A stretch of DNA of 64,000 bases from an uncultured Bacteroidota bacterium. GTDB lineage: Bacteria; Bacteroidota; Ignavibacteria; UBA10030; UBA6906. The translations under genes and the position numbers were made by a program. Location of the stretch: NCBI GenBank assembly GCA_963700635.1, contig CAVOYH010000005.1, positions 96,001-160,000 of the forward strand. The letters run 5' to 3'. The notes beneath the pieces were generated by a model, which was not told the origin of the DNA, searched no databases, and worked only from the letters and a program-made list of their open reading frames with translations. Shown here one piece after another: positions 46,831-64,000 of the stretch; position 1 is the first letter of the stretch, and the number at the start of each line of letters is the position of its first letter.

Positions 46831-48152
46831 AGATTGTTGGAGTGGGAGAGGGGAGTATTGCACATCAGGCCGGTCTGCTGCCCGGGGACGAACTGCTCGA
46901 ACTAAACGGTCAGCGGGTACAGGACAATCTGGATGTGCGCTTTCACGAGGGTGACGCCCGGGTCTCTCTGAAAATTGCCCGCGCGGGGGAGGTTCTGCTA
47001 TTTGACATCGACAAAGACGATGGCGAAGCTCTCGGGCTGGAAATGGAAGAGATGAAGGTCCTCTCGTGCGGGAATGATTGTATTTTCTGCTTTGTGGATC
47101 AGAATCCAAAAGGGCTGCGGAACCAGCTTTATTTCCGCGACGGTGACTATCGCCTGTCGTTTATGTATGGCAACTACACAACCATGACCAACGCCGGTCC
47201 GGCGATTCTGAGGCGGATTATTGAGCAACGTCTCTCCCCGCAGTACATCTCCGTCCATGCAACCGACCTCCCCACACGCATCAAGCTCATGGGGCTGAAA
47301 AAGGATGACCGGATTCTTGAAAAGATCAAGCTCCTGCACGACAACGATATCGACATGCACACGCAGATTGTGTTGTGTCCGGGAATGAACGATGGCGCAG
47401 TGCTGGACCGCACGGTGCACGATCTCTATGCGTACAACCGGCAGGTAGTTTCATTGGCCGTCGTGCCGGTCGGACTCACCGATCACCGGTTCACACTCGC
47501 GCAGATGAAGCGGGTGGACCGTCCGTATGCGCAGGAATTGCTTGACAGGGTGGAGAAATGGCAGGAGCGATTCCGCCGGGAATGCGGAAGGGGATTTGTG
47601 TATGCCTCGGACGAATTTTATCTGGTGGCCGGCCGTCCGATCCCACGGCCTGCGGACTATGACGGGTATCCCCAGATTGAAAACGGCGTCGGGATGGTGC
47701 AGACCTTCCTGACCCGGTTCCGCAGCCAGGCCAGGCGATTTCCAGCGTCCATTCCCCGGCGCCGCACGCTTACGATTGTCACGGGAAAACTGGCTGAAGG
47801 ATTTATGCGCAGTGAAGTGTTGCCCCGGCTGGCGGCGATACGCAATCTTCATGTGCAGCTGGTCGCCGCACCCAACACGCTCTTCGGGCGAAGTGTCACG
47901 GTATCTGGACTTCTCTCGGGGAAATGCGTATATTCAGCCATGCGGAAGAAGACTCCGGGAGATCTGGTGTTACTTCCTCCCGACATCCTGAATGCGGATG
48001 GAATGTTTCTGGATGACATGACCATCCCGCAGCTGGAAGAATCTCTCCGCACCCCTGTTGCCGTGTTTAGCGGACGATGGGGGGCGGTTGTGCGATCTCT
48101 TACCCGTCACAAAAGGAGTACACGCCTCCGGGCTTTGGTACGCGTTTCATAA
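46827..48152 (+). CDS. PDZ + radical-SAM (DUF512-type) protein
   Basis: N-terminal PDZ-like segment, CGNDCIFC, DYRLSF..GNY, QIENGVG. Confidence 0.85.
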   Translation: MKIVGVGEGSIAHQAGLLPGDELLELNGQRVQDNLDVRFHEGDARVSLKIARAGEVLLFDIDKDDGEALGLEMEEMKVLSCGNDCIFCFVDQNPKGLRNQLYFRDGDYRLSFMYGNYTTMTNAGPAILRRIIEQRLSPQYISVHATDLPTRIKLMGLKKDDRILEKIKLLHDNDIDMHTQIVLCPGMNDGAVLDRTVHDLYAYNRQVVSLAVVPVGLTDHRFTLAQMKRVDRPYAQELLDRVEKWQERFRRECGRGFVYASDEFYLVAGRPIPRPADYDGYPQIENGVGMVQTFLTRFRSQARRFPASIPRRRTLTIVTGKLAEGFMRSEVLPRLAAIRNLHVQLVAAPNTLFGRSVTVSGLLSGKCVYSAMRKKTPGDLVLLPPDILNADGMFLDDMTIPQLEESLRTPVAVFSGRWGAVVRSLTRHKRSTRLRALVRVS

Positions 48153-48168
48153 TCAAAGGAGCCTGAAG

Positions 48169-48921
48169 ATGTCACGATTCTGGTGGGCGTGTGCAGTCCT
48201 GCTGAGTGTTGCTACACCCCTTCACGCGCAAGAACCACAACACCTCACGCGGTATGAGGCAGGTCTCGACCTGCTGACAGCCATGCCTGTCTCCGCCCCG
48301 CCGTCTTTGCTGCAAGGGGAAAGCATTCCGGCGAAAAAATCTGTCGGCCTCGCTGCTCTGTACTCACTTCTCATTCCCGGAATGGGAGAGTGGTATGCCG
48401 AGGGATTTTCTTCCGGGAAATACTTCCTGATTGCCGAAGGCGTGTTATGGCTCGGCTATGCCGCGGTGGAGATTCACGGAAACGATCTGCGGGATGGTGC
48501 GCGGGCGTACGCCGCTGCACATGCGGGAGTGGATGCTGCAGGGAAAAATGACGACTTCTTCGTCAACGTCGGCAACTTTACGTCAGTGGCGGACTATAAC
48601 GACAAACGTCTGCGTGATCGGGAACCCGAAAAGTTGTACGATCCTCTGGCCGGATACAGCTGGCGGTGGGAGAACGATGCAGCGCGTCTGATCTACCGTG
48701 AACAAAGGATCAGCAGCGAGAACATGTACAACAACCGCAAGTTTGTGGGCGCGGCGATTCTGATCAATCATCTTGTCAGCGCCATCAATGCGGCCCGGTC
48801 AGCGATAGCATACAACAATGCACAGGCAGAGGCGCTCGGAGATCTGCATCTCTCCACCCGTATCCTGGGCGGGATGGAACAACCGCACGGGGTTCTGGTT
48901 ACGGTTGCCCGGTCGTTCTAA
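48169..48921 (+). CDS. hypothetical exported/membrane protein
   Basis: AAGGAG SD, signal peptide, KKS...A.LYSLLIPG.G..Y motif, terminal Phe. Confidence 0.7.
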   Translation: MSRFWWACAVLLSVATPLHAQEPQHLTRYEAGLDLLTAMPVSAPPSLLQGESIPAKKSVGLAALYSLLIPGMGEWYAEGFSSGKYFLIAEGVLWLGYAAVEIHGNDLRDGARAYAAAHAGVDAAGKNDDFFVNVGNFTSVADYNDKRLRDREPEKLYDPLAGYSWRWENDAARLIYREQRISSENMYNNRKFVGAAILINHLVSAINAARSAIAYNNAQAEALGDLHLSTRILGGMEQPHGVLVTVARSF

Positions 48922-49793: not shown

Positions 49794-51329
49794 TTGCCCT
49801 CAAAGGTCCTCAGCAGCGCCACCTATGGCGTCACGGCCTTTCTCGTAGAGGTTGAGACCCATCTTGAAAAAGGCCTCCCCGGCTTCTCCATCGTCGGTCT
49901 TCCGGACAATGCCATCCGGGAAAGCCGCGAACGGATTGCCGCCGCCATCCGGAACTGCGGATTCGAATTCCCCCTGCGAAAAATAACCATGAACCTCGCT
50001 CCGGCCGACATCAAAAAGGAGGGTTCCTCCTTTGACCTCCCCATGGCTGTGGGCATCCTGGCGGCCACAGGGCAGGTCAACAATGAGGTACTCCCGGACT
50101 ATCTCCTCGTGGGGGAGCTGGCGCTGGACGGAGCATTAAGACCGGTGCACGGCGTGCTCCCGATGGCCCTTGAAGCAAGAACCCGGAGCATAAAGGGTAT
50201 GCTCCTGCCCAAAGAGAATGGCAAGGAAGCATCAATGGTGTCTGGACTGTCGGTTTTCCCTGTTTCTTCGCTCAAGGAGGCCGTTGAATTCCTGGATTCG
50301 GATCACGAGAGGCTTCTACCCGTAGTTCTTGACAGGGAAGAACTCTTCCGTCAGGATCACCGGTATCTGGCGGACTTTGCGGATGTCAAGGGGCAGGAAA
50401 ATGTCAAGCGTGCGCTTGAGGTGGGGGCTGCAGGAGCCCATAATATCATCATGATAGGGCCTCCTGGCTCAGGTAAAACGATGCTTGCCAAACGGCTTCC
50501 CGGCATATTGCCTCCTCTTTCTTTTGATGAAGCTCTGGAGACGACCAAAGTTCATTCTGTGGCGGGCCTGCTCCCACCCGACACGGCTGTCGTGTCAATC
50601 CGTCCTTTCCGCTCACCCCACCATACGATTTCGGACGCGGCGCTTGTGGGTGGTGGCTCCGTGCCACGCCCCGGTGAGATCTCCCTGTGCCACAATGGTG
50701 TTCTGTTTCTTGACGAGCTCCCGGAGTTCGCCCGGAACGTGCTTGAGGTGCTCCGGCAGCCTCTCGAAGACGGGTGTGTAACCATCAGCAGGTCCAAGCT
50801 GACCGTGACCTACCCCGCAAACTTTATGCTGGTTTGTGCGATGAACCCCTGTCCGTGCGGCCATTTCACCGATCCTCAGAAGGAGTGCACCTGTCAGCCC
50901 GCGGAGGTGCAGAGGTACATGACTCGTATCTCAGGCCCTTTGCTCGACCGGATTGATTTGCACATCGAAGTTCCCGCCGTGAAATATCGTGAGCTTGCCA
51001 GCAAAGAGCATGGGGAATGCTCGGCTGAAATCAGGGCGCGCGTGACCGCTGCCCGCGCCCGACAGACCGCCAGGTTCAGAGCCCGGAAGGGTCTCTATGC
51101 CAATGCCGATATGCAATCCAGCCAGATACGGGAATTCTGCGGGATCAATGGCACCGGAGAAGAGTTGTTGAAAATGGCCATTACAAAACTAGGGCTTTCC
51201 GCGCGGGCATACGATCGAATTCTCAAAGTGTCGCGTACGATTGCCGATCTGGCTCAGTCGGAGGGGATCAAGCCAGAACACGTTGCCGAGGCGATACAGT
51301 ACCGGTCGCTGGATCGGACTTTGCTGTGA
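49794..51329 (+). CDS. comM: YifB/ComM-family Mg-chelatase-like AAA+ ATPase
   Basis: [59 protein letters not shown]; the frame is intact. Confidence 0.94.
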
Positions 51330-51454
51330 AGAGGTCGCAGCCCCTTGACTGATAACGCCTGTTGATTCCCTGTTCGGCCACTGTGCGGCAACTGCCCCCG
51401 ATGTGTGGACGTGTTTCGCCTACCTCGTGCGAGAGAACCGAACACGCTCAAGTG

Positions 51455-51491
51455 TGTCTCTGCGCGCCCTGTCTCTGCGCGCGGTCTCTGC
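51455..51491 (+). repeat. three short direct repeats of GTCTCTGC(GCGC)
   Basis: TGTCTCTGCGCGC at 51455 and 51470, plus GTCTCTGC at 51484. Confidence 0.6.
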
Positions 51492-51784
51492 ATGTATGTG
51501 TTTTCTTCTTGATAAACTCGAACTCAGCCCGTATATTGCTGCCAACTTTCCGGGGGGAGAGCAAATGCGAACTAGATCCGAAGCCTCACTGGTCCGAATG
51601 GATGGTGGGGCTTCTTTCGTTTTGTTCGGAGCATTCCCTTTCTCCGTTTCGTGAGAGTGGAGTCTCCGTGCTCTGCGACATCTGACACCATGGAAGATGA
51701 TGCCGCCATCTTCTTGATTCCGTACTCAATGTTTGTCTTATCGTCTCAGGGGATGAGAAGAGGCATAGAGAACTGGATAAGGCT

Positions 51785-53077
51785 ATGGAGCAGCGGATGA
51801 GAAAATGGACTCAGATGTTCTTCTTTGGGATCCTGATCTTCACCTGTTCAGCTTCAGCCCAACAATGGGTTGGGCAAATCGGCGGTGTAAGCACGGCGTT
51901 GTTTTCCGTACAGTTTATTGATTCCCTCCGCGGCTGGGCGGTTGGTGACAGCGGCATGGTTCTTCACACATGCACCGCCGGACAACAATGGACACAGCAA
52001 CTCTCAGGGGTGAACTCGGTCCTCCGAAAGGTGTTCTTTGTCGACTCCCTCTCCGGCTGGGCAGTTGGCAGCAGAGGTGTTGTTATCTACACAAAGGATG
52101 GCGGAAATACGTGGCGACAAAAGGCGATGAGCCCGAACCCTCCATATTGGGATGTTCATTTCGCGGACTCTCTTCACGGATGGATTGTTGGTGGTACTGA
52201 AACCTTTGATGGCGTTTTTGGAGTCATCTTTAGAACCACGGATGGTGGTTCGACGTGGACGGAAACAATCGCCAATGATGCCGGGGGTTTTCAAGGAGTC
52301 TTTTTTCTGGACTCACTCAGGGGTTGGGTTGTCGGTGGGAAGCGACTCTTTGACAACTTTGATCCTGACATTGTTCTTCACACGACAAACGGAGGGAACT
52401 CATGGCAGGAGCAACACACGCCAACTGATGGCCCGCTGTATCGCGTAGAATTCTCTGATTCATTGAATGGATGGGCAGGAGGATTCTCCAATCCTGGCGG
52501 CACAGTTGCGCTCCACACAACAGACGGTGGAACAACGTGGCTAGTGGTGTCATTCCAACCGGGGCCAATCGTAACCAATGAAGGTATCCTGGATATTGAA
52601 GTGACTGGGAACGATGTTGTGTGGCTTGTCCGTGTTAATTCTGTCCATCGTACGATGAATGAGGGGGCCTTGTGGCAGGAAATCAATCCGTCCGAACCAA
52701 GTGGCACGCTGGCCATTTCATTCTCTGATGGGCGTCATGGCTGGCTGGTGGGGGGGGTGGGTCATATCTGGAAGTACTCGAATCCAAGTACCGGTGTCAT
52801 CGAGGCGATTGGCGCACCTCAAGATGGGTCTCTCAGTATTTTCCCCAATCCCACAAACGGTCAGGTGACGATTCAATTTCAATCAAGGGGATCCGACCAG
52901 ACAGTTATCGAGATATATTCCCTCGTTGGACAAAGAGTCTTCCACACCTACAGGGATTCTCACACTGGTGTCAATACTGTTGTTCTCGACCCTTCAATGT
53001 TGGGCAGCGGAGTATATTTCGCCAGAGTATGGGGACGGGATAGAATACAGTGGGGAAGATTCATCATCAATAAATAG
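51785..53077 (+). CDS. YCF48-like/BNR-repeat beta-propeller protein with a T9SS C-terminal sorting domain
   Basis: Signal peptide, repeated F.DSL.GW.VG and T.DGG.TW motifs; FPNPT...IYSLVGQ...SGVYF CTD. Confidence 0.88.
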   Translation: MEQRMRKWTQMFFFGILIFTCSASAQQWVGQIGGVSTALFSVQFIDSLRGWAVGDSGMVLHTCTAGQQWTQQLSGVNSVLRKVFFVDSLSGWAVGSRGVVIYTKDGGNTWRQKAMSPNPPYWDVHFADSLHGWIVGGTETFDGVFGVIFRTTDGGSTWTETIANDAGGFQGVFFLDSLRGWVVGGKRLFDNFDPDIVLHTTNGGNSWQEQHTPTDGPLYRVEFSDSLNGWAGGFSNPGGTVALHTTDGGTTWLVVSFQPGPIVTNEGILDIEVTGNDVVWLVRVNSVHRTMNEGALWQEINPSEPSGTLAISFSDGRHGWLVGGVGHIWKYSNPSTGVIEAIGAPQDGSLSIFPNPTNGQVTIQFQSRGSDQTVIEIYSLVGQRVFHTYRDSHTGVNTVVLDPSMLGSGVYFARVWGRDRIQWGRFIINK

Positions 53078-53173
53078 AATCAAACTAGACGGAGGATCCT
53101 ATTGACCTGACCCCCGAAACTCGGTCCAAGATTTTGTAGACAAAAATGTTATCTTGGACCAGAAGGAGGGCAT

Positions 53174-53452
53174 ATGGGTAAGCAACGGCACACGGCAGAG
53201 CAGATTATTGCAAAGTTGCGAGAGGCGGAGGTCCTCCAGGGCAAAGGGATGTTGCTGGAGGAGGTCCTGCGGCAGATCGGGATCAGTGACGCGACGTACT
53301 ACAAGTGGCGGAAAGAGTACGGAGGGTTACGGGTCGACCAGGCGAAGCGGCTCAAGGAGCTCGAGCACGAGAACAGCCGCCTGAAGAAGGCAGTGGCCGA
53401 TCTGACGTTGGATAACATGATCCTGAAGGAAGTCAGCCGGGGAAAATATTGA
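53174..53452 (+). CDS. IS3 transposase OrfA (HTH)
   Basis: HTAEQII.KLR, TYYKWRKEYGG, KRLKELE.EN.RLKK; AAGGAGG SD. Confidence 0.92.
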   Translation: MGKQRHTAEQIIAKLREAEVLQGKGMLLEEVLRQIGISDATYYKWRKEYGGLRVDQAKRLKELEHENSRLKKAVADLTLDNMILKEVSRGKY

Positions 53453-53474
53453 GCCCGGCCAAACGGCGCCGGGC
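53440..53474 (+). other. programmed -1 frameshift signal: G_GGA_AAA plus a GCCCGGC/GCCGGGC hairpin
   Basis: X_XXY_YYZ heptamer in the orfA frame at the orfA/orfB overlap, with a stimulatory stem 5 nt downstream. Confidence 0.8.
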
Positions 53475-54295
53475 AGCAGTTCAGGTTCAGTCAGTACTCC
53501 AGGTGTCAGAACGACGTGTCTGTCGTGCCATGGACCACCCCAGATCAACGCAGAGACGAAACCCGGTGGTCAAGTCCGATGAGGAGGCTCTGCGAAAGGA
53601 AATTGTCAAGACGGCATGTGCCTACGGGCGGTATGGGTATCGTAGGGTAACGGCACTGTTGCGGAACGGTGGGTGGAGGGTAAATCATAAGCGGGTTGAG
53701 CGGATATGGCGTCAGGAAGGGCTGAAAGTGCCCAAGCGGCAGCCCAAACGGAGAAGGTTGTGGTTGAATGATGGTTCCTGTATCCGGCTGCGACCCGAGT
53801 ATCCAAACCACGTCTGGAGCTATGATTTTGTGGCTGAGCGGACCACTGACGGAAGACCACTGCGGATGTTGAACATCATGGATGAATACACGCGGGAATG
53901 CCTCAGAATCCACATTGGACGGCAGGTCAAGGCGACAGATGTAATCTATGAATTATCTGAACTCTTCATCGAACGTGGAGCGCCGGACTACCTTAGGTCA
54001 GACAACGGATCAGAGTTTACGGCAGATCTGATTCGGGAATGGCTCGGGCGGCTCGGTGTCAAGACACTGTTCATCGAACCGGGGAGTCCCGTGGGAAAAC
54101 GGGTACATCGAGTCATTCAACGGTAAACTCAGAGACGAGCTGCTCAACGGGGAGATCTTTGACACGATCCTGGAAGCGAGAGTAGTAGCGGAGGACTGGA
54201 GGCGGCTCTACAACACAATCAGGCCACACAGCTCACTGGGCTATCGAGCACCGGCACCGGAAGCACACTCCCTACACCAGGTCGCCAATGCCTGA
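53449..54295 (+). pseudogene. IS3 transposase OrfB (rve integrase) with an extra +1 frameshift at about 54081-54090
   Basis: YGYRR, WSYDF and RSDNG.EF in one frame; PWENGYIESFNGKLRDE and RPHSSLGY in the next frame. Confidence 0.82.
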
Positions 54296-54359
54296 GACAG
54301 GGAAAAAACGAACTCAACATTGGTACACGAACCGGGGGCAGGTCATTAGGAGATGATGC

Positions 54360-55121
54360 GTGCAGCCTCCTATGCAAGACACGAACGCCGAAATCAAGCT
54401 CCTGTTGGGGGCACACACGCTGAGTTCGTTTGGCAGGCGGTGTGCGGTCTTGTTGGGGGTTCTGCTCGCCATGCAATTGTCATGTAAGGATGTTGGTCTC
54501 CCTCCCGATGAGAAGAATGGTCACAATTCCCCCGAGTGCCTGAGTGATCGATACCCCATTGACACAACAAGAGTCTACCTCTTTCCACTCTCGCGAGACA
54601 CGCTCACGATCTATCCCAAGGCCATCTTCGCGCGTTTCCACCCCTGGGTAAGTGATACTTCACGGATCGTGGCGCTGGCTGCGAAGCACAACCTTCGGCT
54701 TCTACGGTATCTTTTCATGCTCGACGGCCAATTCGCCGGAGTCTTTTGTGTGACCGATGGCAGAAGGGCGGAGTACCATTTCACCCCGTGGGGAAAGCAA
54801 CCGTGGGACAACTTTGGTGCGGATTCATTGGTCGAGCACTGCTTTGGGACCTTTGATTCAGGGTACCATATTCCATACGGGACAATTGTCTTTCAGTTCG
54901 TCGATGGGACACCATCTAGCACAATCGACAGTTTGTTTGTCGCGAATGGATTACGCTTTCTATATACTGGAAATCCTACAGGTGAGCTCTATTATACACT
55001 TGTCACTCCTCGTGCAGTGAATAATCCGCTTGATTTGGCCTGCAAGTTACAATCATTGTCGTTTGTACGCTACATTAACGCTGAAATCGCCTCAGCAATG
55101 TCACCTGTTAGATGTGAGTGA
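54360..55121 (+). CDS. hypothetical lipoprotein
   Basis: RR + hydrophobic stretch + QLSC lipobox; two similar small alpha/beta repeats; start uncertain. Confidence 0.6.
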   Translation: MQPPMQDTNAEIKLLLGAHTLSSFGRRCAVLLGVLLAMQLSCKDVGLPPDEKNGHNSPECLSDRYPIDTTRVYLFPLSRDTLTIYPKAIFARFHPWVSDTSRIVALAAKHNLRLLRYLFMLDGQFAGVFCVTDGRRAEYHFTPWGKQPWDNFGADSLVEHCFGTFDSGYHIPYGTIVFQFVDGTPSSTIDSLFVANGLRFLYTGNPTGELYYTLVTPRAVNNPLDLACKLQSLSFVRYINAEIASAMSPVRCE

Positions 55122-55409
55122 AGCATTCTCGATTTTGAGATGGAGGTTGTGGCAAGTTTGCTCTGACACCTGAGCAAAAGAGATCCCAGCGGTGACAACG
55201 AAACATGTTGGACAGACGCTGACGCAGCGGCGCTCTACCAGAGCTTCCGTGAGTCTTTCACGAATTGTCAAGTCCAGCGAAACGTGCGAGTTGAACAGCT
55301 GATTGTGCAACGAGGCTGTTTTGCCAGCGAGTGTGTACGCTTCGCCGTTGCGGTTGTTCTTTGGTCAGTGAGAGGACAAACCCTCATCTGACTTGATGAG
55401 GGACTGGAT

Positions 55410-55943
55410 TCACGGGCGTTTGTCCGGCGGCGGCCCGCCCATGCCCGGCGGTGGGACGCCCCGCCCATCTTGGAGGGGGTGTGGGAGCGATAACTCCTGC
55501 AGCACCTGCTGCATGATCCGATCAAACTTCGCGGACTGCTGCTCAGCGCATATTCCCTTAATCTCCTGAAAATGTCTCAGCGTTACCAGACCGAGCTCTG
55601 ACTCGTGCCGCCCGATTTCTCTCGCCTTTGCCGTGACGAGACTGTCTGATACGCTCGGTCTTTGCACGAGCGCGAAGAAATCCCTCTTGGCATTCCTCAA
55701 TTGTTCCAGGATCTCCCGGCTTGTGCGCTGATGTGACAAGACGAGTTGATCAAACTGCTTCTGCTGTTCAGGTGAGAATTGTAATTCTTTCGCGATAAAT
55801 TCCTTCGGACTTACATCGGGCTTAGGAGGCACATCAGTCTGCCGATCTACCATCCACCAGAGCGTTCCCAGGGTCACAAGATCGATTACGATGAGCACGG
55901 CGATGATGCCGAGCAATACCTTATTCTTTCCGAAGTAGTCCAT
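55410..55943 (-). CDS. Spy/CpxP-like periplasmic (heavy-metal sensor-type) protein
   Basis: N-terminal TM, ELQFSPEQQKQF (LTxxQ-like), HF.EIK.IC..QQ..KF, Pro/Gly tail. Confidence 0.8.
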   Translation of the reverse strand: MDYFGKNKVLLGIIAVLIVIDLVTLGTLWWMVDRQTDVPPKPDVSPKEFIAKELQFSPEQQKQFDQLVLSHQRTSREILEQLRNAKRDFFALVQRPSVSDSLVTAKAREIGRHESELGLVTLRHFQEIKGICAEQQSAKFDRIMQQVLQELSLPHPLQDGRGVPPPGMGGPPPDKRP

Positions 55944-55958
55944 AGAGAGTTCTCTTCT

Positions 55959-56270
55959 TTAATAGCTGTATCCGTTTGCGGTCAAGTGATATTCAGCGAC
56001 AATGCTCTGGACCGGATCTGCATTCTCCTGCATGGAAGCATGCGAACGAATTTCAACCAAGGAAAAGACATTGCCAATAATCAACAGGAGCAGCCCGGCA
56101 AGCGCCAAGCGATACGCCCGCGGCGTGAACGCCGGACGTTCGTCCCGCTGTTCCGCAATGCGCCGCATCACTTTATCGGCGAGATACGGGTTCGATTGAA
56201 CCCGGTTGATCTTCGTAAACAGGTTGAGTGTGCGTTCTGCTTCTTCATCATATTTGTCGAGAGGGTTCAT
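55959..56270 (-). CDS. putative single-TM anti-sigma factor
   Basis: NPYL..KVM.RI cytoplasmic helix and one TM; directly downstream of the ECF sigma gene. Confidence 0.72.
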   Translation of the reverse strand: MNPLDKYDEEAERTLNLFTKINRVQSNPYLADKVMRRIAEQRDERPAFTPRAYRLALAGLLLLIIGNVFSLVEIRSHASMQENADPVQSIVAEYHLTANGYSY

Positions 56271-56277
56271 ATCCGCC

Positions 56278-56910
56278 TCACAAATTGTTTTTGTAAAAAT
56301 CGAAAAGCCTCTTTTTCAGCGTCGACCGGGCCCGGAAAATGAGCGACTCGACGGACGACACGCTCACCGACATCATGTCCCCGATCTCTTTGTGACTTAA
56401 TCCTTCCACCAAGTGCATCGTCAATGCAATACGTTGGTTGTCGGGAAGCTTGTCAATGTGCCGGAACAAGACTTGCGCACGCTCCTTGTCTTCCATTTGC
56501 ACACCCGGATGGGAAAACTCGTCGGCAACATCAATGTCTTCCCCCTCTGCGCCTACAAGCGACTGCAAAAAGCCGAACCGCTTTTTCCGCTTCTTCCAGC
56601 GCAAATGGTCAAGCGACTTCGTTACTGCAATGCGATAGACCCACGTTGACAACTGTGAGTCGCCGCGAAACGACGCAAGCGAATGATGTACTTCGAGAAA
56701 CACTTCCTGGGTCACATCTTCCGCATCTTCTTTGTTGTGAAGAAATCCCAGACACGTATTGAAGACACGGTCTTGATTGTGTCCCATCCAGCTTCGGAAC
56801 ACTGCGTCTTTCTCCCTAAGGGACGTGCCGGATTTAACAATCTCAACGAGATTGCTGTCTTCAGCTGAGGCCTGTGGCGGTCCCTGATGATGTGACGTTA
56901 TCGGAGTCAA
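56278..56910 (-). CDS. ECF (sigma-70 family) RNA polymerase sigma factor
   Basis: DAEDVTQEVF, FRG.SQLSTWVYRIA (region 2), LP..QR.A...EGLSHKEI..SVESLIFRAR (region 4); start codon uncertain. Confidence 0.93.
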   Translation of the reverse strand: MTPITSHHQGPPQASAEDSNLVEIVKSGTSLREKDAVFRSWMGHNQDRVFNTCLGFLHNKEDAEDVTQEVFLEVHHSLASFRGDSQLSTWVYRIAVTKSLDHLRWKKRKKRFGFLQSLVGAEGEDIDVADEFSHPGVQMEDKERAQVLFRHIDKLPDNQRIALTMHLVEGLSHKEIGDMMSVSVSSVESLIFRARSTLKKRLFDFYKNNL

Positions 56911-56920
56911 AATCTTGCGC
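56891..56920 (-). promoter_or_regulatory. putative ECF promoter, copy 1 (GCGCAAG-N16-CGTCACA)
   Basis: Same boxes and spacing as the copies at 57049 and 59839; overlaps the predicted TTG start of the sigma gene. Confidence 0.6.
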
Positions 56921-57048
56921 TGACGGATCTATGATTGCACAATGATAGTGTTTTCGACGGATATGTTGCCACCTCACTACGCATTTAGGGCCAAAACCAT
57001 GAAAAAAGGCATTAAAAAGTCACTCTGAGAAGAAATTGGCTTCCGGGA

Positions 57049-57078
57049 GCGCTGGATTTTACCCGGAATAGCGTCTTA
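57049..57078 (+). promoter_or_regulatory. putative ECF promoter, copy 2 (GCGCTGG-N16-CGTCTTA)
   Basis: About 120 nt upstream of the ferredoxin gene; CGTC is typical of ECF -10 boxes. Confidence 0.65.
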
Positions 57079-57101
57079 AGTAATAGCATCCGCCGGCAGG
57101 T

Positions 57102-57163
57102 AATTGTTGACTCATCGCGTTCACCGGGAACCCGATAAGGCCGCAAGGTTTCTCTCAATTGAT
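57102..57163 (+). ncRNA. candidate cis-regulatory structured leader
   Basis: TAATTG/CAATTG closing stem, ATCG-GTTC/GAAC-CGAT arm and a GGCC-GCAA-GGTT tetraloop hairpin in the 5' UTR. Confidence 0.35.
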
Positions 57164-57197
57164 CGTCAAAAGTAATACGAGATGAAGAACGGAGATT

Positions 57198-57416
57198 GTG
57201 ATGTCAATTAAGAGTATTGATGGATGCATTGGATGTGGGACATGTATACAAACATGTCCTACAGATGTTATTCGTTTCGATCCAAATTCGAAAAAAGCAA
57301 TGATACAGTATCCGGAAGATTGTCAGATATGCCACTTGTGCCGTATGTATTGCCCGGTTGATGCCATCACTATTTCACCGGAGAAATCCATTCCGGTCAT
57401 AGTGTCATGGGGATAA
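57198..57416 (+). CDS. 2x[4Fe-4S] ferredoxin (AprB-like), no signal peptide
   Basis: CIGCGTCIQTCP and CQICHLCRMYCP motifs; GGAG SD. Confidence 0.92.
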   Translation: MMSIKSIDGCIGCGTCIQTCPTDVIRFDPNSKKAMIQYPEDCQICHLCRMYCPVDAITISPEKSIPVIVSWG

Positions 57417-57420
57417 GATA

Positions 57421-58071
57421 ATGAATAAAGATTCAAAAATGGAATATCTGATTCCAGCAACAGGAATCCTTATCGGTCTGCCCGTGCTGTTTTGGGCATT
57501 AGGAGACTTTCCCCGTCGAACCGTTCTCAAGGAATCTCTTTCACTCCTCTTCATTCTGTCGTTTTCTCTGATGCTTGGACAGTTTTTTCTTGGCCGGGGT
57601 AACAGAAATATTGTCATGAGATTCAAAATGAGTACGGTTCTCAGATATCATAAGGTCATTGCGTATACCATTGTTGGTGTATTCTTGATGCATCCCTTTC
57701 TTATCGTGTTTCCCAGGTATTTTGAATCTGGAATTACCCCCATGGAGGCATTCACGACCATGATTACAACATATGAAAGCCTTGGTATAGTGTTCGGACT
57801 CAGTGCATGGTTCCTGTTGCTTGTGTTGGGATTAACATCTCTCCTCCGCAATAAGCTTCCACTGAAGTACAACCATTGGAGAGTCTTTCACGGCATTGTG
57901 TCTATGCTCTTTATATCAGTTGCCACGTATCATGCAATTGACCTTGGCCGTCACACAAATCTGGCTCTGTCCATGTACATGATTGTCCTGGCTGTGAGCG
58001 GAATACTGCTGCTGGTGAAGACCTATATCGTCAAACCATCGAAGGTAGGGAGTGGACATGGCCTTGAATAA
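57421..58071 (+). CDS. ferric-reductase-like transmembrane (putative di-heme b) subunit
   Basis: About 6 TM helices with two His pairs (YHK...MHP; FHG...YHA) and an LRNKL..KY..WR..H motif; no FAD/NAD domain. Confidence 0.82.
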   Translation: MNKDSKMEYLIPATGILIGLPVLFWALGDFPRRTVLKESLSLLFILSFSLMLGQFFLGRGNRNIVMRFKMSTVLRYHKVIAYTIVGVFLMHPFLIVFPRYFESGITPMEAFTTMITTYESLGIVFGLSAWFLLLVLGLTSLLRNKLPLKYNHWRVFHGIVSMLFISVATYHAIDLGRHTNLALSMYMIVLAVSGILLLVKTYIVKPSKVGSGHGLE

Positions 58072-59821
58072 GAGTAAAGACACGCACGGTTTATCCAGGC
58101 GTCAGTTCATAGCGCTTTCTGGTGGTGCGGCAGGTTTTGCGACCCTTGTTGCAATGGGTGTACCGGCAGGGTGGGCGGAAAATGAACCGGATGTTGACGT
58201 GGACGCGATGAACACAAAAGAACATAGAACAGATGTACTCGTTATCGGCGGAGGAATGGCAGGATTGTTTGCGGCAGTAAAGGCTCACGATGCGGGATCC
58301 ACAGTGATGCTCGTTTCCAAAGGTCGCCTGGGCTCGTCGGGGATGACTCCGTTTGCCAAAGGAATATTCACGTACGATCCCGTGACTGAAAAACTTAGCC
58401 TTAATGAATTTGTTGATACTGTATCCCGCTCGGCCTTAGGGACCAACAATGCGGTTTATACCAGGCAAATGGCCGAACATTCGCTGGCGCGGGTACATGA
58501 GCTACGGGAATGGGGATTTTTTGATTCACCTCTTTACAATAATTCCTTTAGCAAGCCCATTACTGACCGAAAAATCCCTGTGATGGAGAGGATTGTAATT
58601 ACACATCTCATCAAAGAAGAAGGCAGGATTGCAGGTGCTGCAGGTTTTAGCCTCGATGAATCGAGGGTTCACATCTTCAATGCGAAGAGTGTTATTCTCT
58701 GTACGGGTGCAGGTGGTTTTAAACCTAATGGCTTTCCCATCTGTGATCTGACACATGACGGCACGATTATGGCGTACAACATCGGAGCAAAAGTCACAGG
58801 CAAAGAATGGAACGACGGCCATCCGGGTCAGGCAACGAATGCCGCGGATTGTTTCGGCGGTTGGCATGGCATGTTTGAGCGAACACCAGGAACAACCGGA
58901 GTTGAGGTCCATCACGATTTGGGCGTTGATCTGAATTACAAGGCATATATTGCCGGAAACCCGGTTGAAATGGGGCGTCCGGGGCAGGGCGATGAAAATC
59001 AGGTGCAAGGCGGCCCGTATGTTCCGGCTGAATTTAGACGAAGCGGACCTCCCCCAGGGGGAAGAAATAACGGCGATGGAGGAGAAAGACCCAGAGACGG
59101 TGGTGCGCCTCCTGGAATGCGTGGAGTTCCTGTGGGTGGATCTTCTGCCGGAATGTCTATTCACAAATCGGAAGGAATTGTACCGATTAATGACAAATGC
59201 GAATCGACTATTCCAGGTTTATATGCTGCTGGTGATTCGCTGGGATCCTATATGGCAGGAGCTATTTATACCCAGGTAGGATCTTCATTGGCGGGCTCTG
59301 CCGTCCAGGGTGCTATAGCGGCAGAGGCTGCGGCTGAATATTGTAAAAACACTGAAGCAGCGACTATTTCAACTTCCCAAATCAATAGAATAGAAGAAGA
59401 GATTCTCGCTCCATTGAAAAGGGAAGCTGGGTACAGTCCCGCCTGGGTAACTCAAACATTACAGAGCGTAATGATTCCTAACTTTGTCCTCTACATCAAA
59501 AAAGAGAACATGCTCAAAGCAGCGTTATCGTACGTTGAAGAGTTGAGGGATCACCACATGCCTTTACTGAGAGCCTCCGATATGCATGAGCTACGATTAG
59601 CCCATGAAACCAGGAACATGATTACAACCGCAGAAATGAAACTTAAAGCTTCACTTATGCGAAAAGAGAGCCGCTGTAGTCATTACCGACTCGATTATCC
59701 CGATGTAGACAATACCAATTGGGAAGCGTGGATCAACATCTACAAAGATGCTGATGGTACTATGCAATTTGAAAAGCAAGCGTTTGACACCTGGCCGGAT
59801 GGTAAGAAACTCATTATCTGA
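58058..59821 (+). CDS. Tat-exported FAD-dependent oxidoreductase of the SdhA/FrdA/AprA/NadB superfamily
   Basis: SRRQFI Tat signal, DVLVIGGGMAG, AKSVILCTG.GG, PGLYAAGD, RKESRCSHYRLDYP C-terminal domain. Confidence 0.88.
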   Translation: MALNKSKDTHGLSRRQFIALSGGAAGFATLVAMGVPAGWAENEPDVDVDAMNTKEHRTDVLVIGGGMAGLFAAVKAHDAGSTVMLVSKGRLGSSGMTPFAKGIFTYDPVTEKLSLNEFVDTVSRSALGTNNAVYTRQMAEHSLARVHELREWGFFDSPLYNNSFSKPITDRKIPVMERIVITHLIKEEGRIAGAAGFSLDESRVHIFNAKSVILCTGAGGFKPNGFPICDLTHDGTIMAYNIGAKVTGKEWNDGHPGQATNAADCFGGWHGMFERTPGTTGVEVHHDLGVDLNYKAYIAGNPVEMGRPGQGDENQVQGGPYVPAEFRRSGPPPGGRNNGDGGERPRDGGAPPGMRGVPVGGSSAGMSIHKSEGIVPINDKCESTIPGLYAAGDSLGSYMAGAIYTQVGSSLAGSAVQGAIAAEAAAEYCKNTEAATISTSQINRIEEEILAPLKREAGYSPAWVTQTLQSVMIPNFVLYIKKENMLKAALSYVEELRDHHMPLLRASDMHELRLAHETRNMITTAEMKLKASLMRKESRCSHYRLDYPDVDNTNWEAWINIYKDADGTMQFEKQAFDTWPDGKKLII

Positions 59822-59838
59822 ATTGCATGAGAATATCT

Positions 59839-59868
59839 GCGCAAGGTATTTGCCATATCATCGTCTTA
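59839..59868 (+). promoter_or_regulatory. putative ECF promoter, copy 3 (GCGCAAG-N16-CGTCTTA)
   Basis: Upstream of the CotH gene; same boxes and spacing as copies 1 and 2. Confidence 0.65.
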
Positions 59869-60044
59869 CATAAGTGAACACGCTGACCAACGCCCGCCGG
59901 GGGGAAAGTGATTGTGATGCCAACGGACTCACAATTCCGCACTCGCTCAATTGTGATTCTGACAATGTATCGGGGCGAATGCGGCGACACGTTGTATTCG
60001 ACTACACAGAATCCATGTGCCTTCAACCAACTAAAGAGGATCCA

Positions 60045-62333
60045 ATGAAAAGGATATATATGTCTCTGCTGATGATTCTTGTGAGCATTGGCGGGTTCAC
60101 AACAAACTCTTTTGCGCAAGAATTCTACGACATTAACACCATTCAGACTATTTCAATAACGTTTTCGCAAAGTAATTGGGACTATATGCTGGATACTGCC
60201 AAAGCCGGAAGCGATGGCTATATCATGGCACAATCAGTCAGCATAAATGGAACTCTGTTTGATAGTGTGGGCGTAAAATACAAAGGGAACAGCAGTTACA
60301 ATCCCAGCTACATTAAGAATCCATTCCATATTGAATTAGATACATACAAAGAACAGGATTATCAAAGTTACAAAGACATCAAGCTTAGTAATGTCTACAA
60401 GGATCCATCGTATTTGCGCGAAGTGCTCTCATATTCCATTCTGCGGCAGTATATGATTGCTCCATTATCAAACTATGCCAATGTTACCGTCAACGGAGCC
60501 TTACTCGGACTGTATGTGAGCTCCGAGTCCATCGGCAAAACATTTGTCAGCAAAAATTTCTATTCCAAAGATAATGCATTCTTCAAGTGCAGTCCGGTTG
60601 ATGGTGCCACTCCCGGAACAACCGCTATACCCAATCTGGTGTATCTGGGCCCCGACAGTGCGAGCTACTCTGAAGCATACGAAATAAAATCTGATTATGG
60701 ATGGATGGATTTACTCACGCTTATGAGCACACTTCAGAGCAATGTAGGCGCTATAGAAAATGTTCTGGATGTGGATAGAGCCTTGTGGATGCTCGCCTTT
60801 AATAACATTCTGGTGAATCTTGATAGTTATATAGGCGTATTTGCACAGAACTACTATTTGTATAAAGACAATACCGGACGTTTTAGTTGTGTGCTCTGGG
60901 ATTTTAATGAGTCGTTCGGAGTATTCAGCCAGACGGGAACAATTAATCTCCCGAATACGCCTGACAAAATTCAGATGACGCATTTGTTGCATGCCGGTGA
61001 CGCGAGCTGGCCGTTAGTACAAAAGCTGCTTTCCGTTCCTACGTATAAGAAGATGTACCTGGCACACTTGCATACAATCCTCACAGAAAACTTTTCAAAC
61101 AATAGTTATTATACGTTGGCGCAGTCAATACAACCAATAATTGATGCTGCGGTGCAGGCTGATCCAAATAGGTTTTTTACGTATCCGCAATACCAAAGCA
61201 ATCTTACAACAGAAGTAGGGTTCGGCCCGAATGCCGTTCCCGGCATTACAGCGTTGATGAATGGCAGAAACACCTACCTCTCTGGGCTTTCTGATTTTAC
61301 GAATACGAAACCAACGATCACCAGCGTCGCATCCAGTGACACAAATCCCAATGTAAATAGCACGATAGTTATTACTGCAAATGTAATTAATACAAACACA
61401 AATGCTGTCTACCTGGGGTATAGAGGGAATAAAGAACATAGATTCACAAAGATCCTCATGTATGATGACGGCGCTCATGGTGATGGTGCCGCGGGGGACA
61501 ATGTGTATGGTGTGTCAATTATTGCAAGCAGTTCGCCACTGCAATACTACATCTATGCAGAAAATAATAATGTTGGAATGTTCTCGCCGGTTAGGGCTGA
61601 ACATGAATTCTATTCGATCACTGTTAATACAACAAGTAGCAGTGATATCGTGATGAATGAAATATATTCAAGAGGCACCACGGCAGATCCTGACTGGATA
61701 GAGATGTATAACGCATCGTCGTCACCAATCGATATCAGTGGTTACAAAATCTATGACAGCGGTGGTGAAGGCGGCACGAAACCCAAGAAAGAACTTCCTG
61801 CCGGGTCCGTAGTTCCTTCTCACGGTGTGTTCGTTGTCGTTACAGACGACACATCCGCAAGTGGTTTCGGGCTTTCAAGTTCTGGCGAGAAAGTGTGGTT
61901 GGAGAACACTGCAGGCGAAGTCATCGACTCGGTGACCTTCCCGGCACTTACCGTCTCCCAGTCCTATGGAAGAATGCCGGATGGAGGCGTGTGGCAAACA
62001 TTGGGTACGATTACACGCGGTGGATCGAATGGTTCACCTACCGGAATTACGGACGACGCATTGAACATAACAACCTATAAGCTTTCCCAAAACTATCCGA
62101 ATCCGTTCAATCCATCAACAACAATCAGCTATCAGCTTGCGGCGGAAGGTCACGCCACATTAAAAGTGTACAACCTGCTCGGGGAAGAAGTCGCTACACT
62201 TGTAAACGAACGCCTGGGCGCTGGATCGTTCACAACGGAATGGAACGCAGCACAATTGCCAAGCGGTATCTACTTCTACCGCCTGCAAGCGGGGTCATTC
62301 TCGGAAACGAAGAGGTTGATACTCTTGAAGTAG
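60045..62333 (+). CDS. CotH-family kinase with a lamin-tail-like domain and a T9SS C-terminal sorting domain
   Basis: Signal peptide; VGVKYKGNSS, REVLSY, GLY...E, N.DSY...QNYYLY and WDFNESFG CotH motifs; MNEI..DWIE.YN LTD; QNYPNPFNPST...SGIYFYRL CTD. Confidence 0.9.
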   Translation: MKRIYMSLLMILVSIGGFTTNSFAQEFYDINTIQTISITFSQSNWDYMLDTAKAGSDGYIMAQSVSINGTLFDSVGVKYKGNSSYNPSYIKNPFHIELDTYKEQDYQSYKDIKLSNVYKDPSYLREVLSYSILRQYMIAPLSNYANVTVNGALLGLYVSSESIGKTFVSKNFYSKDNAFFKCSPVDGATPGTTAIPNLVYLGPDSASYSEAYEIKSDYGWMDLLTLMSTLQSNVGAIENVLDVDRALWMLAFNNILVNLDSYIGVFAQNYYLYKDNTGRFSCVLWDFNESFGVFSQTGTINLPNTPDKIQMTHLLHAGDASWPLVQKLLSVPTYKKMYLAHLHTILTENFSNNSYYTLAQSIQPIIDAAVQADPNRFFTYPQYQSNLTTEVGFGPNAVPGITALMNGRNTYLSGLSDFTNTKPTITSVASSDTNPNVNSTIVITANVINTNTNAVYLGYRGNKEHRFTKILMYDDGAHGDGAAGDNVYGVSIIASSSPLQYYIYAENNNVGMFSPVRAEHEFYSITVNTTSSSDIVMNEIYSRGTTADPDWIEMYNASSSPIDISGYKIYDSGGEGGTKPKKELPAGSVVPSHGVFVVVTDDTSASGFGLSSSGEKVWLENTAGEVIDSVTFPALTVSQSYGRMPDGGVWQTLGTITRGGSNGSPTGITDDALNITTYKLSQNYPNPFNPSTTISYQLAAEGHATLKVYNLLGEEVATLVNERLGAGSFTTEWNAAQLPSGIYFYRLQAGSFSETKRLILLK

Positions 62334-62550
62334 TATGGAAACGGCTGCCTGTCAGGTTCCTTGATAGTGAAGCAGATTCCCTATAAACACGAGATCATGT
62401 GCTCTTAGCATTGTAATGGCGACACCTCCGGCAACAGATGACTTTACTCACTGTGAGGAATGCGAAGAGCACATTGATCAACACTCTCTCAGAGCCTTTC
62501 AGCGTACCAGGTTCTTTGATGGTATTCGTACTCACTTCAAGGTGACCTGA

Positions 62551-63555
62551 CTATAGAGTCCTGGTGGTCAAAGGTGCGCCGGAATGGAAATTCTCCACTC
62601 CAGGATCGCCCGCTGCCGACCGCCCGGCGAGCAGCTCTCCTCCCAGTCTTTCCAGCTGCAGACGCCTGCCAATCTCAACCTCGCGCGCCAGGCTCGTAAC
62701 AATGTTTGCAAGGTCGTACCGGGAAGCATGTGCATCCAGTGAGGCGAGCGCCCTGGCGGTTACTGCGTTTCCCACAAGAGGGCGCAACCGTTTCCTTGTG
62801 CGTTCAATGTTCCCCTGGCAACTCTGCCGGGTGCTTTCCTGAATTGAGCGCATCACACGTTCTTGAATGTCTCGGGATTCGTCGATTTCGCGCTCCAGAA
62901 AGTCCCTGAGCATCCATTCCGGATGGCCGTAATGGACACATTGTCGCTTTCCGGAGTCAATCTCAATAACCGCGCCGTTGGAACAGACGTACCGGAGGAC
63001 AAAATGGTGGACTGAGAGAGCACGGAATCCCGTTTCCGAGTTGAACACATTGTGCCCCATGCCGCACTCATCGCCCGGAACCGGGAACACGCGCGCACGG
63101 ATAGTTGTATACACTCTCATGAAGAAGTCGTTTCGCGATATGCTGGCAACCCCGAGTGACCGGGCCAGCTCAAGTACTTCAAGATCAGAAATGTTGTTGT
63201 ATCTGCCGCTGGTGATCGAAAGTGCCTCTCCATTTTCCACCTTCAACGTCACGTCTCCGCTCCTGATGTTGAGGAGAAAATCGTTCAGGATTGAACTCAC
63301 GGTGTCAATGTTCAGCCGACCCAAATGGCGTGCCGGAAACCCGTACCATTTCAGGAGCTTGTGCAAAAAAACCTCCCTCACCGGGTATTCCGACACGCCA
63401 CCCCTGGACATTCGGAGAAGCAACATGGTGCCGTCATTCACGACATGCAGGTTCTGCGGATCCACCTGGAACTCTTGCAGCCGGCGGTCCCTGAGAAAGT
63501 CCACGACTTCTTCGGGAGCCGCTTCTGCGAACGTCTGACCATGCCTCAGATTCAC
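62551..63555 (-). CDS. DUF932/DUF945-like protein
   Basis: S.RY..I.D..VL, FNSETG..AL.V and LRYVCSNG motifs, C-terminal NIVTSLA...RRL.LERLGG; GTG start overlaps the upstream TGA. Confidence 0.7.
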   Translation of the reverse strand: MNLRHGQTFAEAAPEEVVDFLRDRRLQEFQVDPQNLHVVNDGTMLLLRMSRGGVSEYPVREVFLHKLLKWYGFPARHLGRLNIDTVSSILNDFLLNIRSGDVTLKVENGEALSITSGRYNNISDLEVLELARSLGVASISRNDFFMRVYTTIRARVFPVPGDECGMGHNVFNSETGFRALSVHHFVLRYVCSNGAVIEIDSGKRQCVHYGHPEWMLRDFLEREIDESRDIQERVMRSIQESTRQSCQGNIERTRKRLRPLVGNAVTARALASLDAHASRYDLANIVTSLAREVEIGRRLQLERLGGELLAGRSAAGDPGVENFHSGAPLTTRTL

Positions 63556-64000
63556 CGTTGTTTTGCTCCCTTTGCTCCTTCCTTTTTCCGGAACGCCGCA
63601 AGGTGTATCTGATGGGTATTATAGACCAGTTCAAACCCGGTCACACCTTCCGAATCAAAACGCCGGTCCGTTCCCACGCCGGCCCCGGGGGCTTCGTGGT
63701 ACTGCTGTTCTTCGAGGAGATCGAGGAATTCCAGAGTCCGGTAGCGCGCCTCGGCTTCGGAAAGTTTTGCCTTGGTAGGCCGTTTAGCACCTGCCTCGAA
63801 TGCGGCCCCGCGGAGGAGCTTCGGGAAGTATTCCGCATACACGTCACGGCGGTTAAACACGTCAACCCCGACAAGCGTCTTGCCGAAGAATACCGCCAGC
63901 CCGTTGGCATTTTCGCTCAGCGTAAAATGACTTATAAACGTGGTGAATTCGTCCGCCTTCTCTTTGAAGACATCCGACAGGTTGGATGTCGGAGAGGCGA
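63552..64000 (-). CDS. ARPP-1/DUF6569-like protein (5'-truncated by the window edge)
   Basis: Frame is open to the window end: SPTSNLSDVF...NGLAVFFG..LVGVDVFN...Y..YFPKLLRGAA.EA...GVG.D.R...G..L.....IHLAAF. Confidence 0.7.
   Translation of the reverse strand, partial: ASPTSNLSDVFKEKADEFTTFISHFTLSENANGLAVFFGKTLVGVDVFNRRDVYAEYFPKLLRGAAFEAGAKRPTKAKLSEAEARYRTLEFLDLLEEQQYHEAPGAGVGTDRRFDSEGVTGFELVYNTHQIHLAAFRKKEGAKGAKQR

Follow-up and report, generated by a model that had tools for sequence, protein, structure and literature searches.

Whether the genes that meet at one locus of an uncultured Ignavibacteria bacterium answer to a single sigma factor of the extracytoplasmic function (ECF) type is the question raised by this stretch of DNA. 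The window, by which is meant the whole stretch of 64,000 nucleotides (nt) that was analysed, spans positions 96,001 to 160,000 of contig CAVOYH010000005.1 (assembly GCA_963700635.1). Within it, positions 55410-62333 hold the genes for an ECF sigma factor, a short membrane protein and a Spy-like protein on the minus strand (the triad), and, on the plus strand, those for a ferredoxin, a membrane protein and a flavoprotein (the cassette), followed by one for a secreted CotH kinase-family protein. A preliminary description of this DNA had seen one bipartite motif at the head of each of the three gene sets and proposed that it is the shared promoter through which the sigma factor drives its own, the redox and the CotH units. 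In silico, comparative evidence resting on conservation across phyla supports this regulon well. With a probability of about three in four, four such sites serve as promoters for the neighbouring ECF sigma factor and would let it activate its own operon together with the redox operon and CotH, and it is likely that an exported flavin/iron-sulfur enzyme and a secreted CotH kinase are thereby placed under a stress-type sigma factor.

Promoter-like sites of the locus

The motif GCGCWRG-N16-CGTC was confirmed by sequence at all three coordinates given earlier, with the N16 spacing each time. Site 1 (GCGCAAG-N16-CGTC; 56891-56920, minus strand) lies 88 nt upstream of the sigma start, the distal site 2 (GCGCTGG-N16-CGTC; 57049-57078, plus strand) 122 nt upstream of the ferredoxin start, and site 3 (GCGCAAG-N16-CGTC; 59839-59868, plus strand) 179 nt upstream of the likely CotH start. 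The earlier count of three copies was nevertheless incomplete, as it had overlooked a fourth, weaker copy. This proximal site 2b (CCGCAAG-N16-CGTC; 57141-57170, plus strand), found by a weight-matrix scan and matching the pattern less well than the three noted sites, stands 30 nt upstream of the ferredoxin start, a placement like that of the sites ahead of the ferredoxin gene (fdx) in relatives (45-53 nt in loci L081 and L086). All four sites are oriented toward their downstream genes. In the closest relative (genome G001), site 1 is invariant and site 2 is changed only at two spacer bases.

The longest open reading frame (ORF) of the sigma gene reaches TTG 56910, a start that lies inside site 1, so that the site could not serve the sigma gene as a promoter, and this start was rejected on the substitution pattern against G001. 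Among codons 1-36 of the long frame, ten are changed, nine of them non-synonymously (mostly radical) and one synonymously, and the 14 changed codons among codons 37-210 comprise seven synonymous and seven conservative non-synonymous changes. A GGAG sequence precedes GTG 56802 by 8-9 nt in both genomes, and two sigma orthologues begin at the same place, the others being about 15 residues longer; some orthologues have a longer N-terminal helix. GTG 56802 is therefore the most likely start of the sigma gene, with site 1 lying 88 nt ahead of it. For CotH, ATG 60045 opens a signal peptide (MKRIYMSLL), and the region around AGAGGA-ATG aligns with G001 with few bases different; this is most likely the CotH start.

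The exact pattern occurs four times in the window against 0.22 expected, a number attained by none of 100 shuffles, the fourth exact match being a G+C-rich one at 21643 that is outside the 35 best weight-matrix hits listed. Across the 4.2-Mb genome, the pattern is found 24 times at the N16 spacing, compared with 8-17 times at six alternative spacings. Because the pattern itself came from the sites, an unbiased control was also run, in which the best three-way 30-mer was sought among the three upstream regions. It recovered exactly the noted sites, with 15 of 30 columns identical, and none of 60 mononucleotide shuffles attained 15 (shuffle maximum, 14).

A further ranking was obtained with a weight matrix built from 21 sites, all from other genomes, by which 8.4 million positions of this genome were scored. 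Ranks 1-4 are the four window sites (site 1, 28.6; site 3, 26.6; site 2b, 23.4; site 2, 22.0), and all listed weaker hits (20.8 or less) fall within open frames of at least 120 amino acids (aa), one of them preceding a paralogous sigma gene. In this genome, the motif is essentially confined to this locus. A weight-matrix scan of the genome and of orthologous loci had been the check proposed in the preliminary description, and its outcome supports the proposal, with the four window sites on top and the orthologue loci enriched. A consensus scan for sigma-70-type promoters gave seven matches, none within either intergenic region. Rfam, searched over 55000-62600 at E values up to 1, gave no match, and the long leaders therefore hold no known riboswitch.

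The sigma triad and its motif in relatives

The sigma factor (56278-56802, minus strand; 174 aa from GTG 56802) carries Sigma70_r2 (Pfam, 9.4e-15) and Sigma70_r4_2 (5.5e-15) and no other domain, and scores 96.2 bits against the NCBIfam sigma70-ECF model (cut-off 42.9). With a length of 174-210 aa, it has the domain content and the size of an ECF (group 4) sigma factor. The next gene (+1; 55959-56270, minus strand) encodes a short single-pass membrane protein of 103 aa with one hydrophobic helix, which gave weak hits throughout in direct family scans. In a profile-profile comparison, its residues 6-74 match residues 38-107 of orthologous zf-HC2 anti-sigma factors (probability 96%, E 3.8e-9), and the short form is therefore a truncated relative of the classical anti-sigma factor, the zf-HC2 zinc finger itself being recognized by Pfam in three of the four long +1 proteins of orthologous triads that were scanned. 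The +1 protein is likely to be an anti-sigma factor, with residues 1-52 as its cytoplasmic domain.

The third gene (+2; 55410-55943, minus strand) encodes a membrane-anchored periplasmic Spy/CpxP/ZraP-like protein of 177 aa, identified by weak Pfam matches and, as read from its translation, possessing a hydrophobic N-terminal helix and a tail rich in glycine and proline (G/P-rich) at the C-terminus. Its counterparts in orthologous triads are recognized by Metal_resist, those of L122 (30.4) and L123 (33.0) exceeding the cut-off. The arrangement of sigma factor, +1 membrane protein and +2 membrane-anchored Metal_resist/LTXXQ protein recurs in Aureibaculum, Labilibaculum, Calditrichaceae, Chlorobium and others. 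A terminator-like hairpin with a T-rich tail, found by consensus scan just 3' of the Spy-like gene (55381-55402, minus strand), is likely to be the end of the sigma operon; by itself it counts for little, because eight such sites occur in the region and 7.2 in shuffles.

The conservation of the motif was followed in two samples. Among relatives of the cassette (80 loci kept of 343 confirmed), a weight matrix seeded from the three window sites gave hits of at least 16.6 in only five other genomes, plus one hit inside a CotH coding sequence. These genomes are G001, three metagenome-assembled genomes (MAGs) from Ignavibacteria (G041), Calditrichota (G042) and Calditrichaceae (G045), and a Chlorobium MAG (G044). 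An orthologue of the sigma factor, 43-92% identical, is found in each of the five, their next-best sigma factor being 30-33% identical (37% in G045). In the Calditrichota genome (L081/L094), the motif precedes the sigma gene, the anti-sigma gene, a macA-macB efflux operon, fdx and CotH; in the Ignavibacteria genome (L019), it precedes the anti-sigma gene, macA, fdx, and a small Spy-like gene followed by CotH; and in the Calditrichaceae (L086) and Chlorobium (L085) genomes, it stands before fdx, with the sigma orthologue (43-47%) on a separate contig. From the -10 box to the called start, the distance in relatives is 9-56 nt, the exception being L085 with 131 nt, where the site lies inside a long ORF. 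An alignment of 25 sites gave the consensus GCGCAAGTTTTTT-N-CGTCT.A, in which C4, G7, T26 and A30 are invariant.

Two side observations concern the same sites. In most orthologous triads, a motif copy lies between the sigma and anti-sigma genes (L081 360, L102 2040, L103 1490, L121 2957, L120 2362, L100 1198 and many of L125-L153), which suggests a sigma-dependent promoter of their own for the anti-sigma and Spy-like genes; in the window, these two genes, sigma and anti-sigma, are 7 nt apart, with no intervening site. In addition, contig 46 of G041 (L112) carries two more copies, at 603-632 and 1501-1530, beside an ORF resembling the C-terminal part of the flavoprotein, and these copies may mark a second or fragmentary cassette.

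The second sample was independent of the cassette and consisted of 301 genomes of the phylum, which were searched for the sigma family (E no higher than 1e-30). Its members were found in 120 of the 301, including 62 of the 63 genomes of one taxonomic family. For a locus test, the 29 best orthologue loci outside this genome were taken, a hit being a score of at least 14 within 1.5 kb. The motif was hit in 23 of these 29, compared with one of nine loci of paralogous sigma factors and a background of 0.018 per locus, and most hits lie either a short way ahead of the sigma gene or in the gap that separates it from the anti-sigma gene. Control genomes conformed to expectation. In three control Bacteroidota, the sigma orthologue is encoded elsewhere in the genome and the cassette stands beside a LytTR system without the motif, while control Desulforhopalus and Shimia genomes have neither a sigma orthologue nor the motif. 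No hit above 13 was obtained in the cassette loci under two-component systems (L014, L017, L062, L037 and L027). By these comparisons, the motif is a hallmark of the orthologues of this sigma factor across the phylum.

The same results bear on the idea that the motif serves some DNA-binding regulator as its operator, the genes being transcribed from other, unrecognised promoters. The -35 word is atypical of ECF promoters, and the leaders in this genome are long, both of which would suit an operator. However, the motif is strictly directional and bipartite, its N16 spacing never varies and it includes a CGTC box. It accompanies one sigma family in loci that hold no other regulator, is missing from all but one of the nine paralogous sigma loci and from the cassette loci governed by two-component systems, and in relatives stands 9-56 nt ahead of start codons. 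An operator is accordingly regarded as highly improbable.

A more serious competitor is encoded in the same genome. On its contig 5, 105 kb upstream at 46860-48584 (L154 2860-4584; 47055-48584 when bounded more narrowly), there is a second triad of the same architecture (sigma factor, short anti-sigma factor and Spy-like protein), and its sigma factor is 48% identical to the one in the window. Just upstream of that gene, at L154 2996-3025, lies a site of its own, CCGCAGT-N16-CGTCTAA. It is conceivable that the four window sites are ECF-type promoters read mainly or also by this paralogue, in which case cross-talk or another sensor would control the locus. Against this, the paralogue's own site has a -35 word one base shorter and scores 20.0, compared with 22-28.6 for the window sites; G001 retains sites 1, 2 and 2b though it lacks the second triad, its next-best sigma factor being 30% identical; and in the Calditrichota and Ignavibacteria loci it is the adjacent sigma factor that is the best match. 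Reading by the paralogue is considered unlikely, and the adjacent sigma factor remains the preferred reader of the sites.

The putatively controlled genes and a possible mechanism

The first gene of the cassette encodes a 72-aa 2x[4Fe-4S] ferredoxin (57198-57416, plus strand), which matches Pfam Fer4 families and has two CxxCxxCxxxCP motifs. It is 68-86% identical in 76 of the 80 related loci and has no signal peptide; it is predicted to be exported bound to the flavoprotein, by hitch-hiking. The second encodes a Ferric_reduct membrane protein of the MsrQ/NOX type (57421-58071, plus strand; PF01794, E 1.5e-10), present in 73 of the 80 loci, whose translation shows two H-x13-H pairs, that is, four potential haem-ligand histidines, and which is predicted to be a di-haem b electron conduit.

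The third is a flavoprotein of 589 aa with a signal for twin-arginine translocation (Tat), belonging to the fumarate reductase/adenosine 5'-phosphosulfate (APS) reductase superfamily (58052-59821, plus strand; FAD_binding_2 and Succ_DH_flav_C). Its N-terminus, with the twin-arginine sequence SRRQF followed by a hydrophobic stretch, is conserved in relatives. The structural model is of high confidence (predicted local distance difference test, pLDDT, 87.2; predicted template modelling score, pTM, 0.89) except in a disordered G/P-rich loop at about residues 306-355, and the best folds retrieved by Foldseek, with TM values of 0.66-0.75, are an archaeal 3'-phosphoadenosine 5'-phosphosulfate (PAPS) reductase (8a8o) and AprA (1jnr/2fja), with FrdA/SdhA close behind.

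The three genes are kept as a unit in 72 of the 80 loci; of the other eight, three are truncated where a contig stops. Identities of 65-85% are maintained by the flavoprotein in Bacteroidota, Desulfobacterota, Campylobacterota, Chlorobi, Calditrichota, Cloacimonadota, Omnitrophota and others, and the cassette is represented by at least 2456 protein clusters. Where homologues of the flavoprotein bear a name, it is FAD-binding protein, FAD-dependent oxidoreductase, or a succinate dehydrogenase/fumarate reductase flavoprotein subunit. Aureibaculum luteum and Labilibaculum filiforme are among the cultured organisms that have the cassette, whereas the named genomes with the motif ahead of fdx are MAGs. 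In other lineages, the cassette adjoins BaeS/BaeR-like pairs (below equivalog cut-offs; Desulfobacterota and a Shimia MAG), a LytS/LytTR-type pair or an ArsS-family kinase. This company of envelope sensors fits an effector of envelope stress. Small Spy-like proteins and EF-hand proteins, along with Lcl_C, VTC and DUF4956, are found repeatedly near the cassette.

A compositional feature was also observed among these proteins. The words GPP, PPG or PPP occur at least twice in most flavoproteins (71 of 82) and small secreted proteins of 90 aa (15 of 19), in all ten EF-hand proteins, in about half of the small Spy-like proteins (15 of 29) and BaeS-like kinases (10 of 19), and in 5 of 14 LytS-type kinases, and such words are nearly absent from the remaining neighbour families (loci L013-L092). 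The G/P-rich element is thus common to exported effectors and sensor domains, and in the window it is found in the flavoprotein loop and at the C-terminus of the Spy-like protein.

The last gene of the locus (60045-62333, plus strand) encodes a secreted CotH kinase-family protein with CotH (PF08757, E 2.4e-46, 159 bits, cut-off 23.8), lamin-tail (LTD, 1.7e-16) and C-terminal sorting domains. That it is a cargo of the type IX secretion system (T9SS), as had been suggested, is upheld by matches to Por_Secre_tail (2.8e-10) and to TIGR04183, a type A sorting domain (43.6 bits against a cut-off of 23). Conservation of the gene neighbourhood, which the preliminary description had proposed to check, holds for the cassette and for the triad. 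CotH lies within 24 of the 80 fetched loci, and each of the 26 CotH genes found in them runs in the same direction as the cassette. Aureibaculum has a triad of the same sigma family with an EF-hand protein and CotH next in order, but the cassette is missing there. In L086 (359-4970) and L081 (8385-12371), CotH stands beside the cassette together with VTC, a polyphosphate polymerase domain, and a small membrane protein, which is DUF4956 by Pfam in L081; the L086 neighbourhood also has a Cthe_2159 beta-helix protein.

Comparison with G001 sheds light on the history of the locus. By BLAST, the module at 55300-59825 is 96.6% identical to its counterpart (97% for the flavoprotein) and the CotH part (59964-62329) 88.2%, as against 69-72% in the flanks, which suggests a recent exchange of the sigma-cassette module. 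A segment of about 140 bp at the joint between flavoprotein and CotH (59826-59963, by alignment and BLAST), which holds site 3, is missing in G001, and by this comparison site 3 was either gained or lost recently. The possibility that the segment is a repeat or a mobile element was ruled out, as it is unique in the genome. In G001, CotH begins about 85 nt after the flavoprotein and would therefore be read from the ferredoxin promoters, so that CotH would stay in the regulon either way.

Beyond the module, about 4 kb at 51304-55300 are present here and not in G001. They contain a BNR protein with a T9SS tail (51785-53077), an unassigned lipoprotein-like ORF (54360-55121) and an IS3-type transposase split over three ORFs (53174-54295). 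Downstream of CotH, the genes at 62551-63555 have no Pfam match, and G001 shows no similarity to the window over 62551-64000.

The apparently recent transfer of the module also lends some colour to the view that the sites are partly relics here, the sigma operon alone being controlled, with constitutive expression of, or read-through into, the cassette and CotH. Site 3 falls within an indel, and the distal sites leave long leaders, as relics might. Yet the proximal fdx site (2b) is well placed and conserved, and the same targets bear the motif in four other genomes, in two of which the sigma factor is encoded elsewhere, although unused sites would decay. Relic sites are judged very unlikely.

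Several observations nevertheless weigh against control of all four sites by the adjacent sigma factor. An AAC core is present in the -35 element of most ECF promoters, and the -35 word here is without it. Three of the four sites leave leaders of 88, 122 and 179 nt, where relatives have 9-56 nt. The 21 'independent' sites of the matrix were found via a matrix seeded from the three window sites, and the conservation of the matrix columns is therefore partly circular; the independent parts of the evidence are confined to the positions of the sites before orthologous genes and the 29-locus test, and many of these 29 loci belong to one family and are not independent events. Site 3 is absent from G001, and the genome encodes a paralogous sigma factor whose promoter is similar. 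The anti-sigma candidate lacks the zinc-finger N-terminal half, and the Spy-like protein stays below the Pfam cut-offs, both for Metal_resist (E 2e-5, 25.2 against 29.2 bits) and for LTXXQ (E 0.007, 17.4 against 24.3). Moreover, the direction of electron flow and the substrate, as given below, are pure inference.

Under control by the adjacent sigma factor, the locus could work as follows. At rest, the short membrane anti-sigma factor would hold the sigma factor, and the membrane-anchored Spy/CpxP-like protein would take part in sensing some envelope signal. Once released, the sigma factor would amplify itself from site 1 and activate the two effector units. The di-haem membrane protein would then take electrons from the quinol pool, or from a donor in the cytoplasm, and pass them outward to the exported ferredoxin and FAD subunit, and this enzyme would reduce a periplasmic substrate, as MsrQ feeds MsrP. 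CotH, exported via the T9SS, would act on surface or secreted proteins. A wider idea is offered as a tentative one, more doubtful than probable: the triad, the cassette, CotH and their companions (Spy-like, EF-hand, VTC, DUF4956 and Lcl_C) may form one undescribed envelope system, in which a membrane-fed APS-reductase-like enzyme and a kinase jointly target G/P-rich exported proteins or an envelope component, and which different lineages might have wired independently to ECF, BaeSR-like or LytTR-type sensors.

The regulatory logic of an autoregulated ECF sigma factor with a membrane anti-sigma factor is ordinary, but the controlled content is not. Few orphan redox modules that we have met are as well conserved as the three-gene cassette, and its recurrent association with secreted CotH kinases brings two unexplained families into a single stress response. 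A defined promoter together with a dedicated sigma factor provides a direct experimental handle on the inducing signal and the substrate, as expression of the sigma factor or deletion of the anti-sigma factor should turn the module on.

Relation to known systems

Literature searches returned little that resembles this regulon. For ECF sigma factors with CotH, they found clostridial SigI only and nothing for these phyla; for CotH with VTC and DUF4956, only the Gram-positive Pel and NELoc; for MsrQ/ferric reductase, flavoprotein, ferredoxin, Tat and envelope stress, nothing on this cassette; and for 'ECF249', the classification paper of Casas-Pastor et al. (2021) alone (PMC7826278), whose supplement may describe more.

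By promoter motif, ECF249 is the closest group among those described in the parts of that paper drawn on here. Its predicted target motif has CGCAACTTT in the -35 element and GTT in the -10 element; its anti-sigma factor is encoded at +1 and mostly has one membrane helix; its members occur in Bacteroidetes, Chlorobi and others; and in subgroup s3 an EF-hand protein lies in the neighbourhood (PMC7826278). The sites of the window read CGCAAGTTT...CGTC, so that one of nine -35 bases differs, and the -10 box CGTC contains GT, a resemblance short of identity with GTT. The sigma family studied here shares the taxa and the one-helix +1 anti-sigma factor, a likeness drawn by description and not by the group model, and EF-hand proteins likewise stand beside its orthologues L120 and L123. 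Unlike the present locus, ECF249 as described in those parts of the paper has no mention of a Spy-like protein at +2, CotH or a flavoprotein cassette (PMC7826278). The combination had been regarded in the preliminary description as not described: for the content of the regulon, nothing to the contrary was found in the literature searched, but the promoter type is not wholly new, because a very similar -35 word is in print for ECF249.

Other groups were considered because they have a heavy-metal-resistance/LTXXQ protein at +2. ECF281, ECF290, ECF111 and ECF03 (ECF03s10) were rejected as the home group, as their -35 words in the accounts used (GGAACTT, TTGAACCT, TTAAACC) differ, and for ECF281 the taxa differ too: its predicted motif is GGAACTT...GTCTAA, and the account drawn on does not report it from Bacteroidetes, unlike this sigma factor (PMC7826278). 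ECF281 and ECF290 have a 'heavy-metal resistance' protein at +2, and CnrYXH of Cupriavidus is ECF291 (PMC7826278). With these three, the present locus shares the order sigma factor, anti-sigma factor, PF13801-type periplasmic protein, autoregulation (predicted here) and a -10 box of the CGTC/GTC type. Their targets, as far as these accounts go, are metal efflux pumps, whereas here they would be a redox cassette and a kinase.

For the enzyme itself, the best structural matches, which are also among the best PDB sequence matches, point to AprAB, with its FAD-containing alpha subunit and two-cluster ferredoxin-type subunit. Identity is, however, only about 20%, and the flavoprotein reaches 94.2 bits against the TIGR02061 cut-off of 641.75. 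The ferredoxin, with 72 aa, is shorter than AprB (about 130-150 aa) and without its tail, reaching 31.8 against the TIGR02060 cut-off of 135.65 over profile positions 9-66 of 132. In addition, AprAB is cytoplasmic, unlike the present enzyme with its Tat signal and membrane haem partner. The label 'AprAB-like' applied earlier is therefore fair for the fold and the subunit logic, but membership of the AprA and AprB families fails at every threshold, and the protein is not AprA.

Envelope-stress responses of E. coli offer the remaining parallels. BaeSR-Spy and Cpx-CpxP are two-component envelope-stress responses whose known targets are efflux pumps and chaperones. They share with the present locus LTXXQ/Spy-like periplasmic proteins in the sensing or response set, and differ from it in that an ECF sigma factor would be the regulator here and the targets would be a redox enzyme and CotH. 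MsrPQ (YedYZ), controlled by HprSR, consists of a haem b membrane protein and a Tat-exported periplasmic molybdoenzyme. As in that system, a Ferric_reduct-family membrane protein with predicted haem b is paired here with a Tat-exported periplasmic enzyme under a putative envelope or oxidative-stress regulator; the partner, however, is a FAD_binding_2 flavoprotein with a 2x[4Fe-4S] ferredoxin instead of the molybdopterin enzyme MsrP, and the regulator would be an ECF sigma factor.

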